A stretch of DNA of 64,000 nt from Escherichia phage BF17: sequence record MW822008.1. One strand, 5' to 3'. Both the position numbers and the translations under genes were made by a program. Positions 2,526 to 22,408 of this stretch are shown here, piece by piece (the first letter of the stretch is position 1; every line of letters starts with the position of its first letter). The notes below the pieces were generated by a model, which did no database searches, was not told where the DNA came from, and saw nothing but the letters and a program-made list of their open reading frames with translations.

Positions 2526-3256
2526 TAGATAAATCCTCCATTACGTAATAGTTCACCACGCTTAAATGCATTTAGGTTGAACTTTTTAGTCATGTAATCA
2601 GATGTTGGTTGTTCTTCAAGTTGAAGCATTACAGATATTTTCTGTGGAACCCATACCTCATCTTGTGGATTCATATATCCAGTACTTCTAAGCTGTTCGA
2701 AGAATTGACGACTATCCATATCAGATAAATTAAAAGTACTATCACTACTATTCAATGGAACCTGAATATAAGAAACATCATTTGGATATGTAAAATTATA
2801 TGCTTTCAAAATAACAGGAATATCATTATATGTATAACGACCATACCCACTTAATAGTAAAATTGGCGGTGGTGCACCTGCAATTGCTAGTTCGGGATTA
2901 TTAGCAGATGCTGCTTGACGACCAAAGTCCATTAAGGACACGGAACGAATAAAATGAACACAAGCCAATGCATACATTGCTTCAGCAGCAGTGTTTGCAT
3001 AAAACTCACCTTGGATAGTGAAAATTGTGTTTGTTGTATTCTTGTAGTTGTTGTAGTTACTGTTAGTATGTATAGGGGACTGTGTTTCATATTGAACCGA
3101 CCTTTGTTCAGTTACAGTTGGGGTTACAGTCCAAACCAAACCATTTGTTGGACGCAGAAACGATAGCAATGTTGGCTCTGAACTGTTGCCAAAATCACCA
3201 TACACATAGTTAGCACCTGCGGTTTTAGGTCTTAATCGGATTCTACGATCAATCAT
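2525..3256 (-). CDS. Hypothetical structural protein (about 243 aa)
   Basis: ATG at 3256 preceded by GGAGAATCAAAAAG; the longer track ORF (to 3346) would run into the divergent gp55 promoter region. Confidence 0.45.
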   Translation of the reverse strand: MIDRRIRLRPKTAGANYVYGDFGNSSEPTLLSFLRPTNGLVWTVTPTVTEQRSVQYETQSPIHTNSNYNNYKNTTNTIFTIQGEFYANTAAEAMYALACVHFIRSVSLMDFGRQAASANNPELAIAGAPPPILLLSGYGRYTYNDIPVILKAYNFTYPNDVSYIQVPLNSSDSTFNLSDMDSRQFFEQLRSTGYMNPQDEVWVPQKISVMLQLEEQPTSDYMTKKFNLNAFKRGELLRNGGFI

Positions 3257-3321
3257 CTTTTTGATTCTCCATAAGAAGGGAACATTTGATGTATTTATAC
3301 GTGGGACAAAGACGTTTTTGG

Positions 3322-3330
3322 TGCTATAAT
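3322..3330 (+). promoter_or_regulatory. Extended -10 promoter motif TGCTATAAT upstream of the gp55-like gene
   Basis: ggTGCTATAAT about 60 nt upstream of the ATG at 3388; same 9-mer recurs at 5 other intergenic sites. Confidence 0.4.
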
Positions 3331-3387
3331 AACATTGATGGTACAAGGAATGTACCTATTGGATTTAAAACATGGAGAGTTGAAATA

Positions 3388-4227
3388 ATGACAAATAGGC
3401 CGAAGCGTAAAAAGTATCTTAACAATGCTGATTTACTTCGTGAGATACAAAAAAGTAAAATCTCATATTGCTGGTTACTAGATAAGTGCTACAGTATGTA
3501 CGATTATATCGTTTTTGATGAATCCGAAATTACAGCAGAACTTTTAGATAAAGCTAAAGCAGCACGTATTAAACGTCTCAACAATGAAATGCTTGATGCA
3601 ATTCGTGAAAAAGAAGGTATGAGTGCGAAGAAAGCGAAGGAATACGCAGATGAGCACAATTTAGTACTAACTGATGTACCTATCGATGAGGTGGTTATTC
3701 GTGTAATTACCGATGAACATATCCCAGCAGATACAAGAGTAAATTTTGAACCATTCAAACATTACATTGTAGATGAAGAAGGTATTCTGTACGAAGTTGT
3801 TCGTTCTCACTGGAAAGGTGATCTTGAAGACGGAGAATTCAGTACTGTTCATGGTAAAATCACTAATGAACTAGGTAAAATGTTCATTAAACTGGCAGAG
3901 GAAATCTCACACAAATCCAACTATAGAAACTATACATATTTGGATGAAATGATGGGTGATGCCAGAATACAATTAGTTAAAAACGCACTTCTCTTTAAAG
4001 AGAGTATTCTTTACAAAAAAGATAAACCAGCAGTACAGTTGAATCCTTTCTCTTACTATACTTCGTTCGTTAACAATAGTTTCCGTTCGATTCTTAATAG
4101 TGAGAAAAATGTTCGTAACATCCGAGACGATTTACTTGAGATGCATGGTTTTACACCATCACACACTCGTCAAATCGAAATTGAAATGAACATGATTGAA
4201 AGGAAAAACGAAGATGGCTCTATTTGA
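3388..4227 (+). CDS. 55: Late-transcription sigma factor, T4 gp55 family (280 aa, with an internal insertion relative to T4)
   Basis: GGAG then ATG at 3388; N-terminal 'NNADLLREI' and C-terminal 'NYTYLDEMMGDARIQLVKNALLFK...NPFSYYTSFVNNSF' align with remembered T4 gp55 blocks; sits directly upstream of gp47/gp46 as in T4. Confidence 0.75.
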   Translation: MTNRPKRKKYLNNADLLREIQKSKISYCWLLDKCYSMYDYIVFDESEITAELLDKAKAARIKRLNNEMLDAIREKEGMSAKKAKEYADEHNLVLTDVPIDEVVIRVITDEHIPADTRVNFEPFKHYIVDEEGILYEVVRSHWKGDLEDGEFSTVHGKITNELGKMFIKLAEEISHKSNYRNYTYLDEMMGDARIQLVKNALLFKESILYKKDKPAVQLNPFSYYTSFVNNSFRSILNSEKNVRNIRDDLLEMHGFTPSHTRQIEIEMNMIERKNEDGSI

Positions 4228-5245
4228 TAAAGCAATTACATTTACTGATATTCATTTAGGATTAAAGAATAACAGCAAGCAGCACAACGAAGATTGTTTG
4301 AACTTCATCAAGTTTATGATTGAACTTGCTAAGAAAAATGGTATTACTGTATGCGTGTTTATGGGAGATTACTTCCATAACCGCAGTAATATTAACATTC
4401 AAACATTAAACTATGGTTTACAAATTCTACAATTACTAAATGACAACTTTGATAAGGTTTACTTCTTAGTTGGGAACCATGACATGTATCATAAAAATAA
4501 ACGTGACATTACTAGTATTAATATGGCACAAGTTTATGAGAACATCGAGTTCATTAATGAAATCACAACATTTGATGATTGTACTTTCATTCCATTTATG
4601 ATTGAAGATGAATACAAAGTTCTACCTCAACTTAAAAGTAAGTATGTTTTTGGTCACTTAGAGTTACCTGGATACTTGCTCAATAAAATGGTTGAGATGC
4701 CAGATCATGGTAAAGAGACTGAAGGTTCTTTTGGTGGTTGTGAGTATGTTTTTAGTGGACATTTCCATAAGAGACAAGCAAAAACAACATCAAAAGGAAC
4801 TCGTGTAATTTACACAGGTAACTGTTTCCCACATAACTTTTCTGATACTTGGGATGATGCAAGAGGTGTGATGATTTTAGAACATGGCAAAGAACCAACT
4901 TTCCATTCTTGGTCAGAAGCACCAAAATATAGAACATTTACACTTTCAGAACTATTAACAGATCCAAGTTATTATCTTCAAGACAATACTATTTCAAAGG
5001 TTCAAGTTGATATTGCTATCACTACTGATGAGATTAGTTTTATTCGTGATACTTTTACTAAACTTTATAACATTCGTGAGTTTAACGTTGTTACTAGCAA
5101 GCAAAGTATCAAAGAACTTATTGAAGATGGTGAAAGCTTTGAAAGTACTGAGTCAGTTGATGAGATTGTGTTACAACAAATCATGGAAATTGATTCACCT
5201 ATGTTCGATAAAAATCTTCTAATCCAAATTTACAGATCACTATAA
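4214..5245 (+). CDS. 47: Recombination endonuclease subunit, Mre11/SbcD-like (T4 gp47 family)
   Basis: Calcineurin-like phosphoesterase motifs: 'TDIHLG', 'GDYFH', 'GNHD', 'GHLE...', 'SGHFH'; followed by the Rad50-like partner. Confidence 0.85.
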   Translation: MALFDKAITFTDIHLGLKNNSKQHNEDCLNFIKFMIELAKKNGITVCVFMGDYFHNRSNINIQTLNYGLQILQLLNDNFDKVYFLVGNHDMYHKNKRDITSINMAQVYENIEFINEITTFDDCTFIPFMIEDEYKVLPQLKSKYVFGHLELPGYLLNKMVEMPDHGKETEGSFGGCEYVFSGHFHKRQAKTTSKGTRVIYTGNCFPHNFSDTWDDARGVMILEHGKEPTFHSWSEAPKYRTFTLSELLTDPSYYLQDNTISKVQVDIAITTDEISFIRDTFTKLYNIREFNVVTSKQSIKELIEDGESFESTESVDEIVLQQIMEIDSPMFDKNLLIQIYRSL

Positions 5246-14192: not shown

Positions 14193-14292
14193 ACAAAAAT
14201 CGCACTTTTTAAAGCTTTTAAAAATGGCGAAATTTTTCAGTACTAAATAATATCATACTTTATATGAATGTAATATATCTATGGAGGATATA

Positions 14293-15123: not shown

Positions 15124-15154
15124 CACTAAATAAAGAAAAGGAAAGGAGATCATT

Positions 15155-17003: not shown

Positions 17004-17047
17004 ATATCATACTGAAAAACGAATATAACATCTTTAAGGAGATAATA

Positions 17048-18223
17048 ATGTCACAACTACTAAATGAATCCAAATGGGTAGCAGTTAAAGAGAAACTAGT
17101 TGAAGGTCTACAAGGTACTCGTAAGTCCGTAATGGAAACCGTACTTGATAACCATCGTAAACTAATGCTAAACGAATCTGCTACTTCTGGTGCAACCACC
17201 GCTGGTAACATCGCTACTCTAAACAAAGTGATTCTACCAATTATGCGTCGTGTTATGCCAACCGTAATCGCTAACGAAATCATCGGTGTTCAGCCAATGA
17301 CTGGCCCAGTTGGTCAGATCCACACCCTACGTGTTCAATATGCTGACAACGCTCCTGGTGTTATCGCTGGTGAAGAAATGCTTTCTCCATACAAAATCGC
17401 TAAGTCTTATACTGGTGACCTAAACGCAGACAACAGCAACCCACAAGCTGCTCCTACTAGCCAACTAGAAGGTACTATGGGTCGTCGCGTTAACATCCGT
17501 ATTCTACGTGAAACTGTTGAAGCGAAATCTCGTCGTCTATCTGCACGTTGGACTGTTGAATCTGCACAAGATGCACAATCCCAACATGGTATCGACGTTG
17601 AAGCTGAACTAATGGCTGCAATCGCTCAAGAAGTTACCGTTGAAATCGACCAAGAGCTACTAAGCCGTCTACGTGCACTACCTGGTGCTGCTGCTGTAAC
17701 TTATGACCAATCTAAAGTTACTGGTGTTGCGACCTTCGTTGGTGACGAGCACGCTGCTCTAGCTACCCTAATCAACCGTCAAGCGAACGAAGTTGCTCGT
17801 CGTACCAAACGTGGTGCTGCGAACTGGGCTGTTGTTTCTCCAACCGCTCTAACCATTCTACAGTCTGCAACTACTTCTAGTTTTGCACGTACTACTGAAG
17901 GTACTTTCGAAGCTCCAACTAACGTTAAATTTGTTGGTACTCTAAACAGCACCATGCGTATCTTCGTTGATACCTATGCAAGTGATGTTGAAGATATCCT
18001 AATTGGTTACAAAGGTAACGCTGAAACTGATGCTGGTGTGTTCTATTGCCCATACATCCCACTAATGGCTTCCGGTACTGTAATGGACCCTAACACTGGA
18101 GAACTCGTTACAACTTTCTTAACCAGATACGGGTATGTTCAGTTGACCGATAGCACCAGTTCACTAGGTAACGCTGCTGACTACTACAGTAAAATCGCTA
18201 TCAAAAACGTTACTTTCATGTAA
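17048..18223 (+). CDS. 23: Major capsid protein (T4 gp23 family, HK97-like fold)
   Basis: TAAGGAGAT RBS; 'NEIIGVQPMTGPVGQIHTLRVQY' matches the conserved gp23 'VQPMTGP' block; strong codon bias; followed by a strong terminator. Confidence 0.85.
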   Translation: MSQLLNESKWVAVKEKLVEGLQGTRKSVMETVLDNHRKLMLNESATSGATTAGNIATLNKVILPIMRRVMPTVIANEIIGVQPMTGPVGQIHTLRVQYADNAPGVIAGEEMLSPYKIAKSYTGDLNADNSNPQAAPTSQLEGTMGRRVNIRILRETVEAKSRRLSARWTVESAQDAQSQHGIDVEAELMAAIAQEVTVEIDQELLSRLRALPGAAAVTYDQSKVTGVATFVGDEHAALATLINRQANEVARRTKRGAANWAVVSPTALTILQSATTSSFARTTEGTFEAPTNVKFVGTLNSTMRIFVDTYASDVEDILIGYKGNAETDAGVFYCPYIPLMASGTVMDPNTGELVTTFLTRYGYVQLTDSTSSLGNAADYYSKIAIKNVTFM

Positions 18224-18246
18224 TAATAAAGAATTTAAATATACTA

Positions 18247-18276
18247 GGGACTCTTCGGAGTCCCTTTTCTTTTTTC
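18247..18276 (+). terminator. Intrinsic terminator after the capsid gene
   Basis: GGGACTCttcgGAGTCCCttttctttttt. Confidence 0.7.
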
Positions 18277-18287
18277 AGAAAAAAAGC

Positions 18288-18316
18288 TTGACAAGTAGAT
18301 TTTAATTATATATAAT
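18288..18316 (+). promoter_or_regulatory. Consensus sigma70-type promoter (TTGACA-17 nt-TATAAT)
   Basis: TTGACAagtagattttaattataTATAAT, exact -35 and -10 hexamers with a 17 nt spacer, right after the capsid terminator. Confidence 0.6.
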
Positions 18317-18351
18317 TACCACATACCAAAAATCACAAAGAGACAAATAAA

Positions 18352-19458
18352 ATGCCAAAAGTAAGTATCGACAAAGAAAAATTCATTGAAGAGATGAACA
18401 ACAAGTATGGAGCATATGGTGAATTTGATTTCAGCACTTTAGTATTCAAAGCCAGTAAGACAACAGTTAAATGTAATAAATGCGGAAAAGAAAATACTAA
18501 ACCTGCACTACGTCACATTTCATGTACATGTTCTTCATGTTATTCAAACATGTCACAGCGTTCGAACAACGAAAAATTTATCAGCACGGTAGAAACTAAA
18601 TTTGGAAAAGATAAATTCAAATTTGATAAACTAAATTACATTAACGCTATAACAAAAGTAACCATACTCTGTACAGACGAAGAACATAACGATTACTTTG
18701 AAATTACACCAAACAAATTTCTTACTGGTAAGGGATGTCCTATATGTAATAAAAATGAAGCATACAGTACTGAAGAATTCGTAGAAAAAGTAAAAGAAAA
18801 TTATGGTGATTCATTAGATTTAACTAACACAGTATATGTAAATCAAAAAACTAAAGTAACTGTGTATTGTAAAGCGGGTAACCATGAATGGACAGTTGAT
18901 CCGAAAACTTTACTTGTTGGTAAAACTGGCTGCGGTACATGTTCTGGTAAAGGTGGAAGAAGCACTGAACGTTTCATTGAACTTGTGTCGCCTATCCATA
19001 ACCATAAGTATGATTATAGTTTGGTTGAATATACTATAAGCGAGAATTATGTTGATATTGTATGTCCAACTCATGGTGTTTTCTCCCAACAACCAAAAGC
19101 ACATATGGCTGGTAAAGGATGCCCATCATGTGGTGAATATGGATATCAGCCATCAAAACCTGGATATTTCTATGTTCAAAAACTAACTAATAAAGATAAG
19201 ACAGTGTACAAGTATGGAATCACTGGTGATATGAAACGCCGTGTAAATGAGCAAAGTCGTCATTCTGGTTTTGAACACACAGTACTGATAGAACGTTACT
19301 TTGAAGATGGAAATCAACCATTACTGTTGGAAAAGTTCATAAAGAAATACATTGAAAGTGGTGTTGTAAGTACTGAAGAGTTGCCATCAGGATTTACTGA
19401 AACTTTTGATGCTAAGTATCTTGAAAGTGTTTTAGAAATTGTAAATACTTTTAAGTAA
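18352..19458 (+). CDS. Zinc-ribbon-repeat protein with a C-terminal GIY-YIG/T5orf172-like nuclease domain (homing-endonuclease-like)
   Basis: Four CxxC pairs ('CNKCGKEN', 'GKGCPICN', 'GCGTCSGKGG', 'GKGCPSCGEY'); C-terminal 'GYFYVQK...YKYGITGDMKRRVNEQSRH' fits the GIY-(10-11 aa)-YIG-R pattern. Confidence 0.5.
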   Translation: MPKVSIDKEKFIEEMNNKYGAYGEFDFSTLVFKASKTTVKCNKCGKENTKPALRHISCTCSSCYSNMSQRSNNEKFISTVETKFGKDKFKFDKLNYINAITKVTILCTDEEHNDYFEITPNKFLTGKGCPICNKNEAYSTEEFVEKVKENYGDSLDLTNTVYVNQKTKVTVYCKAGNHEWTVDPKTLLVGKTGCGTCSGKGGRSTERFIELVSPIHNHKYDYSLVEYTISENYVDIVCPTHGVFSQQPKAHMAGKGCPSCGEYGYQPSKPGYFYVQKLTNKDKTVYKYGITGDMKRRVNEQSRHSGFEHTVLIERYFEDGNQPLLLEKFIKKYIESGVVSTEELPSGFTETFDAKYLESVLEIVNTFK

Positions 19459-19481
19459 ACAACCATAAGGAGTTGACACGG

Positions 19482-19832
19482 ATGTTAACTGTATACATTT
19501 TTAAGAAAGAAGAGTACTTAAAGAGTCAGTACTCAAAAATTGAGATTAACGTTCCATACGGGACTTTAGTTGGTTATGATGAAGCTAGTGAAACTTTGTA
19601 TTATAATGATGATAGACTGGACTATAGTATTGATTCATTTATTGAAGACATACTTAATAGTAACACTGAAGATATGTTGTATGAAGAATACTTAGATAAG
19701 TACAAAGAACGTATGTCAAAGTTACATGCTGATGCTCCAGTACTGAACATTTCAAAAACTCCTTCTGAATTCGAGCCACAAAACCCATTCCAACGCCTAA
19801 TTGATGCTGGGGTAAATTTCCGAATTACTTGA
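19482..19832 (+). CDS. Hypothetical protein
   Basis: AAGGAG then ATG at 19482; acidic; no recognisable motif. Confidence 0.4.
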   Translation: MLTVYIFKKEEYLKSQYSKIEINVPYGTLVGYDEASETLYYNDDRLDYSIDSFIEDILNSNTEDMLYEEYLDKYKERMSKLHADAPVLNISKTPSEFEPQNPFQRLIDAGVNFRIT

Positions 19833-19871
19833 TTAATAAATATCTTCATATTACTGATGGAGATATTTTCT

Positions 19872-20180
19872 ATGTCACAGATATGTTATGTTATAGTAAA
19901 TGATGCATGGCCTGATTATGTTAAGATAGGATTTACCAGTAAATCTGAAATGACAGAACGTTTAAGGACATATCAAACTGCTACACCTTTTAGAGATTTT
20001 GTGGTATACCATGAAGTACACTTTGAAGATGCACGTTTAGCAGAGAAAGAAATTCACAAAAGACTAAAACAAATGAACGCAGTAAGGCAACCTAACACCG
20101 AGTGGTTCAAGATGCCTAAGAAGATAGCAGCGAACATCGTTGATTCTGTTCTTGACGATATGGAAAACGACTTGCTATAG
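19872..20180 (+). CDS. T5orf172/GIY-YIG-like domain protein
   Basis: GGAG then ATG at 19872; 'YVIVNDAWPDYVKIGFT...RL...EWF' pattern typical of T5orf172-type GIY-YIG-like domains. Confidence 0.45.
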   Translation: MSQICYVIVNDAWPDYVKIGFTSKSEMTERLRTYQTATPFRDFVVYHEVHFEDARLAEKEIHKRLKQMNAVRQPNTEWFKMPKKIAANIVDSVLDDMENDLL

Positions 20181-20221
20181 TAATAAATATAGTATATATT
20201 AATCATTAAAGGGATTTATAC

Positions 20222-21847
20222 ATGAGCATAAGTTTTAATAACCCACTGGATACTATGACTAGTACTGGTGCTAATGGATCTTTAGAACTAATAGTGCTTG
20301 GTGGTACACCAACTAATCCAAGACCTATTCGTTTTAATTCATCTTCTGTCATTTTACCAGTACAGGCATTGCCAGCAGGTGAGCAAGGTGCTATGGTATT
20401 TGATAGAAATGAGTTGGTGTTAAAATACCACAACGGGACAAGTTGGATTGCAGTATACGATACTGATACAATTCTTGAACCAATCCGTATTTCACTCGAT
20501 GAAGTGAACCGTAAACTGAATTTAAAAGTTGAAACAGTAACATATAGTAGTAGTGCTGTTCCAAGTGCGAGCATTAGTGGTACGAATTTAAATATCGTAT
20601 TCCCTACTCCATCAAGTAGCGGTAGTGGCCCAACAGGTCTTTACACTTCAATGAAGCCTGGTGCAATTACCCAGTACTCATTGACTTCTGGACAAACTGT
20701 TGCTAGTATTCGTGAACAGATGTCTGGAGTAACTAATGGTCAAAGTGGTCGTAATGGTACACAAGGTTCTCCGTGGAAAACTTCTGATGGTTGGTGTTTT
20801 GCTGATGGAATGTGGTGGCAATGGGTTGGTGAAAATGGTACAATCACTAAACAAGTTCCAAATCTTAACCAAGAAGCATACTTGAAAGGCATTACCACAT
20901 CAGGCGTAACTAAAACTGATAGTGTGATTGCAAGTAGTGCATCAATTAGTGGTACTGCGATATCAATTGCTCAACTTCCACCGCACTCATTTAGTTTCAG
21001 TGGAACTACTGGTGCTGCTGGTCGTCATGGTCATAGCCAAGCACTAAAAGGTATGGACAGAAGTGGTCTTAATGCGTTAACATCCAGTAACGACAACGGA
21101 ATCCCAACTGTAATTAATAACATTAACGAAGCACCTGATCACGTGCATAGTTTCAGTGGTTCTACGAATACTGTTGGTAGTGGTCAAGCACACAGCCACG
21201 GAATTAGCAATATTGACGTACCACACTTTAATGTGGCATACTTATATAACATTGCTGAGTCTAACGTTGCATTGAGTGAAAAAGTTGCAAACACCCGTTA
21301 TGTACTGAAAACTGGTGATACAATGTCTGGTTCATTGACTATTGCTAACAGTGCAACAATTCGTTCGAATGATACTTCATTAGTACTTTACTTCCGTAAC
21401 GCTACTAATGGTGAACGTGCAGCAATTTATCATAATTCATCTAACAATACATTACGTTTGAGAAGTAATGGTGGTTCTGAAGTTACAATTAACTCTTCTG
21501 GTGTACTTTATGCTCCATCAGTAACTGGTGCATCATTGTCTATTTCTGGAAACACAGCAACTGTTGCAAGTAAAAACATCGTCAGATCTATTAACGGTAA
21601 CAACGCTGATGCAAACGGTAACGTAACTTTAACACTGGGTGCTGTACAAGATGTTCGTTTAAGTAAAAGAACATCTACGCGAAGTGTTCCTGATTCTTCT
21701 TGGATCTATGCACCAGAAGGTGCTACGCTTGATGGGTTGTTTATTTCCGTAAATGGGAGTTCTGGTACACACGTTGAAGGTTATAGTTGGAGATATACAC
21801 AAAAATTAGTCAATGGTGTATGGACTAACGTAGTAGTGGAGTCTTAA
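20222..21847 (+). CDS. Tail fibre protein with HxH metal-binding motifs
   Basis: Ser/Thr/Gly/Asn-rich beta-like sequence; HxH triplets ('HGH', 'HVH', 'HSH') as in T4 gp12/gp37 fibre domains. Confidence 0.55.
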   Translation: MSISFNNPLDTMTSTGANGSLELIVLGGTPTNPRPIRFNSSSVILPVQALPAGEQGAMVFDRNELVLKYHNGTSWIAVYDTDTILEPIRISLDEVNRKLNLKVETVTYSSSAVPSASISGTNLNIVFPTPSSSGSGPTGLYTSMKPGAITQYSLTSGQTVASIREQMSGVTNGQSGRNGTQGSPWKTSDGWCFADGMWWQWVGENGTITKQVPNLNQEAYLKGITTSGVTKTDSVIASSASISGTAISIAQLPPHSFSFSGTTGAAGRHGHSQALKGMDRSGLNALTSSNDNGIPTVINNINEAPDHVHSFSGSTNTVGSGQAHSHGISNIDVPHFNVAYLYNIAESNVALSEKVANTRYVLKTGDTMSGSLTIANSATIRSNDTSLVLYFRNATNGERAAIYHNSSNNTLRLRSNGGSEVTINSSGVLYAPSVTGASLSISGNTATVASKNIVRSINGNNADANGNVTLTLGAVQDVRLSKRTSTRSVPDSSWIYAPEGATLDGLFISVNGSSGTHVEGYSWRYTQKLVNGVWTNVVVES

Positions 21848-21848
21848 T

Positions 21849-22367
21849 ATGAAAACATATACACATTTCAAAAAATATATCCCAGTAGAAAAGAAACATG
21901 GAGATAATGTTCTTTATCTATTGTCAGATGAGGGTGCTGACTGGTATGATTGTCAAAACGAATTCAGACAAGATACTTTGAAAGTTCAGTACTCTGATGA
22001 TGGTTATATTGCACAAGCATCATATGATGTAACATTGTTAGTACCGTATGGATACAGTGTTTCTGAGTTGGAGCATGATGGTGATGAAGATGAAGTAGTT
22101 GGTAAAATCTATGATGGAAGTAAAATTTCTGATTATGTTGAATCTACTGATGAAAAGATCAAACGTCTATCATCTGAGCACCAAGAATTAAGAACCGTAG
22201 CAATTAATGAGTTGAATAACATTAAGATGGCGATAGATCTTGAGGTAGCAACTGATTATGAAATAGAACTGTTTCCTAAGTTGAAAGCATATGTTCTTGA
22301 GCTATCATCTCTAACAACATCTGAATTTAGTAAGAAGAAGTTTTCGTTCCCTGTTAAACCTGTTTAA
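21849..22367 (+). CDS. Hypothetical protein, possibly tail-fibre assembly/chaperone
   Basis: 172 aa ORF starting 1 nt after the fibre stop; call is positional only. Confidence 0.3.
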   Translation: MKTYTHFKKYIPVEKKHGDNVLYLLSDEGADWYDCQNEFRQDTLKVQYSDDGYIAQASYDVTLLVPYGYSVSELEHDGDEDEVVGKIYDGSKISDYVESTDEKIKRLSSEHQELRTVAINELNNIKMAIDLEVATDYEIELFPKLKAYVLELSSLTTSEFSKKKFSFPVKPV

Positions 22368-22408
22368 AAGTTTTTTTGGAACAAAATCGTAAGTAGTGAT
22401 ACAATGTA

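Follow-up and report, generated by a model that had tools for sequence, protein, structure and literature searches.

Two genes with nuclease-like products follow the major capsid gene of Escherichia phage BF17 (sequence record MW822008.1), and the locus raises the question whether both, only one or neither of them is a mobile, selfish gene. The window, i.e. the whole stretch of 64,000 nucleotides that was analysed, was placed by megablast in Asteriusvirus, the 121Q/PBECO4 group of E. coli jumbo phages of about 350-380 kb. An earlier note on this DNA, made from its letters alone, had read both genes as selfish. This view stands for the first of them (gene 1, product annotated "hypothetical protein"), which is variable and mosaic among related phages, and does not stand for the second (gene 2). 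Gene 1 and its own promoter most probably form a free-standing homing endonuclease gene of the T5orf172 class, and gene 2 a fixed, non-mobile gene of the phage. T5orf172 is a branch of the GIY-YIG nuclease superfamily; for this type of domain, the metal-dependent DNA cleavage of the superfamily has been shown only in the homologous domain of Odn (PMC8263062).

The presence of gene 1 varies between close relatives, as the earlier note had expected of the interval between capsid and fibre genes. BLASTN and junction alignments show that a cassette of promoter and gene is missing in PBECO4 and fEgEco12 precisely between the terminator of the capsid gene and the ATG of the next gene, which resembles 121Q gp605; in both phages only about 40 nt separate the two. 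Judging from its size, the same slot is also empty in CMSTMSU and in four Salmonella SD phages, and in more distant genera it is empty in Serratia phage BF and Xanthomonas phage XbC2. The right boundary of the cassette is uncertain by about 20-45 nt, because the ribosome-binding site and a TAAATAC motif are common to the empty sites. The final codons of gene 1 (EIVNTFK*) contain a GTAAATAC copy, some 40 nt ahead of the gp605-like ATG, and TCTAAATACA is found at the corresponding place in the empty sites; therefore, the right edge of the insertion may sit upstream of this motif.

Among the relatives the slot holds at least five types of occupant. Four-finger genes like gene 1, with products of 364-369 amino acids, are present in 121Q, A4, vB_Ec-M-J, WPEC3, Turkey3, CRJP21, BAU.Micro_ELP-22, UB, JP4, phAPEC6 and SP27, and in a divergent form in EJP2. 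Three-finger genes (300-306 amino acids), with a different N-terminus and a similar C-terminal half, occupy the slot in Ecwhy_1, WPEC5, E9.1, EC.P1 and Klebsiella phage fENko-Kae01. SHEFM2K, TH47 and JNE01 carry a T5orf172-type gene for 332 amino acids, and Turkey5 carries a CapR plus DUF723 type of 406 amino acids. Finally, an unrelated gene of the DUF7487 or restriction-endonuclease-like (REase-like) kind, coding for 532 amino acids, is found in ph0011 (locus 2868-4466) and, by slot size, in UE-S1. In the ph0011 protein a DUF7487 region (E 1e-13) is accompanied by a weak REase_MTES_1575/Vsr-like segment with IDIFIPELKLGIEFNGEYWH; another family of nucleases seems to compete here for the slot.

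The slot of Cronobacter phage GAP32 holds a 77-residue open reading frame (ORF), GAP32_251 (locus 1753-1986), which is 40% identical to residues 316-367 of gene 1 (E 1e-12). We take it to be a truncated remnant of the C-terminus of a T5orf172 homing endonuclease, located in the same slot of a different genus. Variable presence, a decay product in GAP32 and a site directly past the major capsid gene are all genomic signatures of homing genes, and the overall pattern is apparently that of invasion, decay and loss expected of a homing endonuclease gene.

The second line of evidence comes from the mosaic structure of the window itself. In a sliding identity profile the window agrees at about 100% with fEgEco12, WPEC5, Ecwhy_1, vB_Ec-M-J and WPEC3 as far as position 18099, and once more from about 19384. 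Between these limits it follows A4, from which it differs at four positions in 18083-18923 and at none in 18991-19226. Identity between window and A4 is 96-100% in the cassette, while in the flanks it is only 75-95%. By contrast, vB_Ec-M-J shares the backbone of the window, but the cassettes of these two are only about 87% identical, with a synonymous divergence (dS) of 0.45 against 0 in the flanking genes. A single backbone thus occurs with several states of the slot: empty in fEgEco12, three-finger in WPEC5 and Ecwhy_1, and with two different four-finger alleles in vB_Ec-M-J and in the window. An A4-type cassette in a backbone of the fEgEco12/WPEC5 type bears out the horizontal mobility that had been suspected for gene 1.

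The exchanged segment is not confined to the cassette and also takes in the 3' untranslated region and the final ~125 nt of the capsid gene. Compared with fEgEco12 and WPEC5 the window has no mismatch in 17400-18099 and 25 in 18100-18244; compared with A4 there are only two in 18083-18275. The changes within the capsid coding part (to 18223) are all synonymous, and the C-terminal 52-66 capsid residues that were compared are identical in all phages but EJP2 and Kae01. A search with 140 nt returned the 12 full four-finger carriers as exactly the top 12 by similarity of the capsid 3' allele, and the tract allele goes with the four-finger gene in 10 of these 12 carrier records. We read the capsid 3' patch as a marker of co-conversion, in a tract of variable length. 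Likewise, the tract that resembles A4 (about 18083-19226) is sharply bounded within a backbone like that of fEgEco12, reaches into the 3' end of the capsid gene and ends, as a conversion tract, within about 20 nt; we interpret it as a probable footprint of homing with co-conversion. The right junction lies inside the conserved, nuclease-coding 3' part of gene 1, which suggests that a resident allele was replaced rather than an empty site invaded. Its position also fits the shuffling of modules reported for the T5orf172 class (PMC10448857).

Gene 1 is preceded by a promoter that shares its distribution. The strong terminator of the capsid gene forms a hairpin (18246-18265) with an 8-bp stem, including five G-C pairs, and a TTCG loop, and is followed by TTTTCTTTTTT. 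The Asteriusvirus loci have the same hairpin; its loop varies in EJP2, Kae01, Turkey5 and ph0011. Twelve bases past the T-run starts the exact TTGACA-17-TATAAT promoter that the earlier note had recognised as driving the 368-codon frame. It is the sole 12/12 match to the sigma-70 consensus in the window; if one mismatch is allowed, five matches are found against 1.38 expected, a number reached in none of 100 shuffles. Of 14 occupied slots examined, 11 have a sigma-70 promoter scoring 11-12/12, ph0011 has one of 10/12, and EC.P1 and SHEFM2K have 9/12, compared with a best score of 8/12 in the empty Asteriusvirus slots. To judge from these sequences, the promoter belongs to the mobile cassette.

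In three phages, terminator and promoter physically overlap. The loci of EJP2 (2849-2946), fENko-Kae01 (2726-2839) and Turkey5 (2726-2839) have the -35 element TTGACG inside the terminator loop (gggactc-TTGACG-agtccc), and TATAAT follows 17 nt after it. The window and its close relatives have the TTCG loop and a separate promoter.

The product of gene 1 has the composition that was first described for it, a 368-residue protein with four CxxC repeats and a C-terminal block GYFYVQK (residues 271-277), YKYGIT (286-291) and RR (296-297). The N-terminal part consists of four tandem zinc-finger modules of about 65 residues, of the CapR/DUF723/DUF4379 type. Five of the six pairs of repeats are alike in alignments (E 1e-3 to 3e-9), and only the first and the fourth do not match. 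Five CxxC motifs are distributed over the four repeats, with one at the end of each; repeats 2-4 have the pattern C...H...CxxC and repeat 1 has CxxC...CxCxxC. An AF2 model of the protein (predicted local distance difference test, pLDDT, 87.8) displays a repeating helix-hairpin-helix unit. The array is presumably the DNA-recognition part of the protein. It can be regarded as a portable DNA-recognition module, because other proteins in a large protein database have the same DUF723/DUF4379 arrays fused to HNH or Vsr-like domains. PHROG 559 ("HNH endonuclease") covers only this zinc-finger part of the gene 1 protein.

The C-terminal domain was modelled and searched separately, because the full-length model is a chain of loosely connected domains (predicted template-modelling score, pTM, 0.41), for which Foldseek returned only meaningless matches in the PDB. 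Modelled alone, it adopts a compact alpha/beta fold of the GIY-YIG superfamily, with a three-stranded antiparallel sheet flanked by helices. The motif residues of the superfamily are in place, with Tyr in the first strand, (Y/K)-x-G in the second, Arg in the first helix and the metal-binding Glu. Y274, K287, G289, R297, E327 and E350 are invariant in 46 homologues, and of these residues the small T5orf172 protein encoded by gene 2 also has K, G, R and both E. E350 would be equivalent to E75 of I-TevI and E180 of Odn.

The assignment of gene 1 to T5orf172 is one at the family level. Its single-sequence Pfam scores all stay just under the cut-off, including those for the fingers (DUF4379 23.9 against 24.5; DUF723 19.1 against 20.9). 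The 46 homologues, however, match DUF4379 in 33 cases, DUF723 in 18, MUG113 in 13, T5orf172 in seven and CapR in five (E<=0.001), and hhalign aligns gene 1 with the bona fide small T5orf172 protein of gene 2 at E 6e-5. By this comparison of sequences the gene 1 protein is a divergent T5orf172 member at the level of the family and not by the single-sequence rule. Pfam GIY-YIG gave no match for the gene 1 protein, a sequence search of PDB chains returned nothing relevant, NCBIfam matched none of the three proteins searched, and PADLOC yielded no meaningful match and no defence-system assignment for gene 1. The GIY-YIG fold, for which the earlier note had suggested profile searches, is recovered by the model and not by the Pfam GIY-YIG profile, and the T5orf172 profile accepts gene 2 but not gene 1.

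With these features gene 1 belongs to a class that has already been described. According to Netter et al. 2021 (PMC8096241) the putative homing endonucleases of phage ICP1 combine N-terminal CapR-like zinc fingers with a conserved C-terminal T5orf172 domain. The survey of Barth et al. 2023 (PMC10448857) covered 204 phages with 468 T5orf172 homing endonuclease genes; in a set of 229 whose DNA-binding domains were analysed, 87% carried CapR/DUF723/DUF4379 zinc fingers, frequently as repeats, and a capsid gene was present in 31% of the neighbourhoods. Genes of this class are described as favouring the vicinity of capsid genes (PMC8096241, PMC10448857). Gene 1 agrees with these genes in its N-terminal zinc-finger repeats and C-terminal T5orf172 domain (PMC8096241, PMC10448857), i.e. 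in having the fingers at one terminus and the nuclease at the other as in the survey of Barth et al. 2023, and likewise in its variability between close relatives, its location beside an essential gene and its shuffled DNA-binding modules. Relatives of gene 1 were found by tBLASTN in 930 phage records, among them the ICP1 genes annotated as putative homing endonucleases, with 32% identity over residues 215-367; the homology to ICP1 ORF130/tcgB has an E-value of 2e-8. Gene 1 differs in its four repeats of the C...H...CxxC type, compared with the CapR-type CxxC...CxC, and in its host lineage, since the Asteriusvirus jumbo coliphages are not named in the main text of the survey. A further difference to the surveyed cases is that the conversion tract, as well as genomes resembling donor and recipient, can be directly read off here, and the comparative evidence for mobility is unusually clear. 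We found no description of the capsid-downstream slot in the main text of the T5orf172 papers or in the searchable Asteriusvirus literature, including that on T5orf172 from 2024 on.

In the literature searched, nuclease activity of a T5orf172 protein has been demonstrated by experiment only for the origin-directed nuclease Odn (Gp88) of ICP1, where it requires the conserved Glu (Barth et al. 2021, PMC8263062). Gene 1 resembles Odn in the C-terminal T5orf172 domain with conserved Arg and Glu and in the N-terminal position of the specificity domain (PMC8263062). However, the specificity domain of Odn is a RepA_N domain from a satellite and the protein is an anti-satellite weapon, whereas gene 1 has zinc-finger repeats and behaves as a mobile gene. 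The classical architecture of the T4 Seg proteins and I-TevI is not that of gene 1: their nuclease is N-terminal and that of gene 1 C-terminal, their linker, NUMOD and helix-turn-helix regions are replaced by a zinc-finger array, and the second motif is K-Y-G and not Y-I-G. The domain order was thus correctly described as reversed relative to I-TevI and Seg proteins. The suggestion that it may be a new architecture, by contrast, has to be withdrawn, as this order is the published standard for T5orf172 homing genes (PMC8096241, PMC8263062, PMC10448857).

A homing cycle of gene 1 can be outlined as follows. The sigma-70 promoter would let host RNA polymerase express gene 1 early in infection, as is suggested by the promoter itself. 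The four zinc-finger modules would then bind a long, specific site in co-infecting relatives that lack the allele, by analogy with the CapR and ICP1 homologues. The C-terminal domain may cut near this site; its fold and catalytic-type residues come from model and alignment, and its activity is assumed from that of ICP1 Odn. Recombinational repair from the carrier genome would finally copy the ~1.2-kb cassette together with a variable length of flank, and the outcome of this step is seen in the mosaic described above.

It is also conceivable that gene 1 is a domesticated former homing nuclease that now serves the phage, either as a CapR-like regulator of capsid or tail-fibre genes or as an Odn-like nuclease against satellites or competitors. 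A dN/dS ratio (nonsynonymous to synonymous divergence) of 0.09-0.15 indicates strong purifying selection and a function that is maintained without decay, and active homing endonucleases, too, are under purifying selection. The zinc-finger modules are of the same type as those of CapR, which represses a capsid operon (PMC8096241), and the example of Odn demonstrates that a T5orf172 nuclease can be turned to defence against satellites (PMC8263062). Moreover, gene 1 lies exactly between the capsid gene and late tail genes, and its cassette brings a strong promoter and no terminator ahead of the downstream genes. But gene 1 is dispensable, as near-identical phages without it show, and its occupancy of the slot, with occupants swapped between backbones and decayed in GAP32, is the behaviour of a selfish gene and not of a fixed regulator. 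We therefore consider domestication of gene 1 unlikely.

More improbable still is an explanation by ordinary illegitimate or homologous recombination at a permissive hot spot, with gene 1 encoding a DNA-binding protein whose T5orf172 domain is non-catalytic. T5orf172 was first predicted as a DNA-binding domain (PMC8096241), and several observations do weigh against homing. The gene 1 protein scores only 17.8 bits against Pfam T5orf172 (PF10544; cut-off 20, E 0.0049), in a match that spans only the first 46 profile positions; mosaicism could also be explained by homologous recombination without a targeted break; and, as Barth et al. 2023 (PMC10448857) note, experiments have yet to verify homing by the putative T5orf172 homing genes of ICP1. 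In addition, the linkage between capsid allele and gene is imperfect, as phAPEC6 has the four-finger gene with the non-carrier capsid patch (equivalent of 18148-18166), and SP27 appears to be a further exception from its identity score (89.3%), which is identical to that of phAPEC6. On the other side stand the model with a GIY-YIG fold, the invariance of an Arg and a Glu whose catalytic role is established in characterised relatives, the repeated refilling of the slot by nuclease-type genes, including the unrelated REase-like one, and a converted tract that is sharply bounded and adjoins gene 1.

Homing by gene 1 remains the preferred reading, and the two exceptions bear on its details. They imply that in phAPEC6, and by the same score in SP27, the left recombination junction lies nearer the gene than in the other ten carriers. 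The capsid patch 18148-18166 had been considered as a target or immunity determinant of the four-finger enzyme; this idea was dropped because phAPEC6 and, apparently, SP27 carry the other allele, and with such imperfect linkage we do not claim the patch as a target or immunity site. The target could equally span the junction of terminator and gp605-like gene, which is split by the insertion itself. Both phages would be useful for narrowing down the target site.

Gene 2, the second, minimal T5orf172-type gene that the earlier note saw about 400 nt downstream, is confirmed by Pfam T5orf172 (PF10544) with 50.6 bits (E 3e-13; cut-off 20) over profile positions 2-99 of 101. In PADLOC its product matches the candidate defence family PDC-S57 at E 1e-15; the match is confined to the T5orf172 domain that both have and spans about 90 of 212 profile positions. 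Its true start is probably the ATG at 19872, which has GGAG 8 nt upstream, rather than that at 19857, and most orthologues are annotated at 102-103 amino acids. Both gene 2 and the gp605-like gene have DNA-level matches in 62 related records, three named genera (Asteriusvirus, Mimasvirus and Eneladusvirus) among them, from hosts that include Escherichia, Salmonella, Klebsiella, Erwinia, Serratia, Yersinia, Cronobacter, Pectobacterium and Xanthomonas. In GAP32, BF and XbC2 the genes were confirmed to stand in the order capsid, gp605-like, T5orf172, fibre, and across the genera of these three phages the gene 2 protein is 67-69% identical and keeps its K-I-G, R and E motifs. Gene 2 is under strong purifying selection, with a dN/dS of about 0.05 at saturated dS, and its identity profile tracks the flanking backbone genes, unlike that of the cassette.

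We interpret gene 2 as a fixed, conserved and non-mobile phage gene and suggest, with low confidence, that it is a domesticated trans-acting nuclease. That both genes are selfish, with gene 2 as a minimal free-standing homing endonuclease, is hardly credible: its bona fide T5orf172 domain with conserved K-x-G, R and E and the proteins closest to it outside the clade, from small T5orf172 ORFs that stand alone in T5-like phages and of which several overlap an annotated tRNA-Lys, would favour it, but gene 2 has no DNA-binding module and sits at the same position in all 62 related records whatever the occupant of the slot, and neither variable presence nor phylogenetic discordance was found for it among related phages. 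Conservation at the locus is moreover what the earlier note itself had named as refuting a selfish element. A decaying remnant of a homing gene was also considered for gene 2 and is ruled out by the dN/dS of about 0.05 together with the conservation across the three named genera. The function of the small stand-alone ORFs of T5-like phages is not known, and the degradation of host DNA by T4 endonuclease II (DenA) provides an analogy only; unlike these ORFs and DenA, gene 2 is embedded in a late structural region. In the GenBank record of vB_Ec-M-J the orthologue of gene 2 is labelled 'homing endonuclease', a label that the conservation of gene 2 argues against.

It is tempting, though rather unlikely, to go further and see in the slot a long-lived landing pad, where a number of T5orf172 lineages and a single unrelated nuclease lineage would displace each other through recombination in the nuclease-coding 3' ends that they have in common, and in gene 2 the domesticated catalytic remnant of an ancient invasion of this slot. 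If so, gene 2 would now serve a core function in these jumbo phages.

For the annotation of these genomes, gene 1 and its homologues, mostly recorded as "hypothetical protein", can become T5orf172-class homing endonuclease-like genes, while the label homing endonuclease is unsuited to gene 2. Phylogenetic studies that use the capsid gene as a marker should consider that its last ~125 nt are recombinant in these phages. Over the ~7 kb that were compared, for example between fEgEco12 and the window or vB_Ec-M-J, carrier and empty-site phages have flanks of about 100% identity, and the locus is therefore suited to a direct experimental demonstration of T5orf172 homing, in a coliphage system that is also tractable for mapping the target and the co-conversion.

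Table 1. Features at and around the capsid-downstream slot (positions in the 64,000-nt window)
Feature	Position	Strand	Basis or remarks
Major capsid protein gene, T4 gp23-like	17048..18223	+	Pfam Gp23 E 9.5e-90; PHROG 138 major head protein; left flank of cassette
Co-converted tract, last ~125 nt of capsid gene plus 3' untranslated region (interpretation)	18100..18244	+	Comparison with fEgEco12, WPEC5 and A4
Intrinsic terminator of capsid gene	18246..18275	+	AGGGACTC-TTCG-GAGTCCCT plus T-run
Putative mobile cassette, promoter plus homing-endonuclease-like gene, ~1.2 kb	18276..19481	+	BLASTN boundaries, junction alignments, slot sizes
Consensus sigma-70-type promoter, TTGACA-17-TATAAT, part of cassette	18288..18316	+	Score 12/12
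Gene 1, 368-aa T5orf172-class free-standing homing-endonuclease-like gene	18352..19458	+	PHROG 681 "endonuclease", residues 24-367, E 1.6e-77
Four tandem ~65-aa zinc-finger modules, CapR/DUF723/DUF4379 type	18364..19143	+	Residues 5-68, 70-136, 137-201, 202-264
C-terminal T5orf172 / GIY-YIG-fold nuclease domain (predicted)	19153..19455	+	Residues 268-368
Conserved 116-aa gene, 121Q gp605-like, function unknown	19482..19832	+	PHROG 15724 E 3e-53; right flank of cassette
Gene 2, stand-alone 102-aa T5orf172 protein (107 aa from ATG 19857)	19872..20180	+	Pfam T5orf172
Tail fibre gene, end of interval	20222..21847	+	PHROG 13229 tail fiber protein E 1e-249

The features of the region are compiled in Table 1. 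In the relatives examined the gene order is protease, scaffold, capsid, slot, gp605-like gene, small T5orf172 gene and tail fibre, followed in most of them by a fibre assembly gene, a small ORF and a DNA polymerase gene. The gp605-like gene between the two nuclease-like genes was absent from the earlier note; a gene is annotated there in every locus examined. Paralogues of gene 1 or gene 2 were not found elsewhere in the window.

A (C/T)TAAATA(A) motif, which resembles the T4 late promoter TATAAATA, is located 5' of the structural genes examined. It occurs at 14240-14260, 15125-15140, 17005-17020, 19836-19848 and 20182-20192, and also at 19436-19443 in the end of gene 1. Examples are ttcagtaCTAAATAAtatcatac ahead of 14281 and ttcagttctaTAAATAAtatcatac ahead of the capsid gene.

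A second mosaic module is found at 21400-22400, where the tail-fibre gene, in its 3' part, and the fibre-assembly gene are 60-69% identical to 121Q and PBECO4 and 94-100% identical to fEgEco12. The fibre gene is longer in WPEC5, Turkey5 and EJP2, and a separate assembly gene is not annotated in WPEC5 or Turkey5. This fibre module is probably related to host range.

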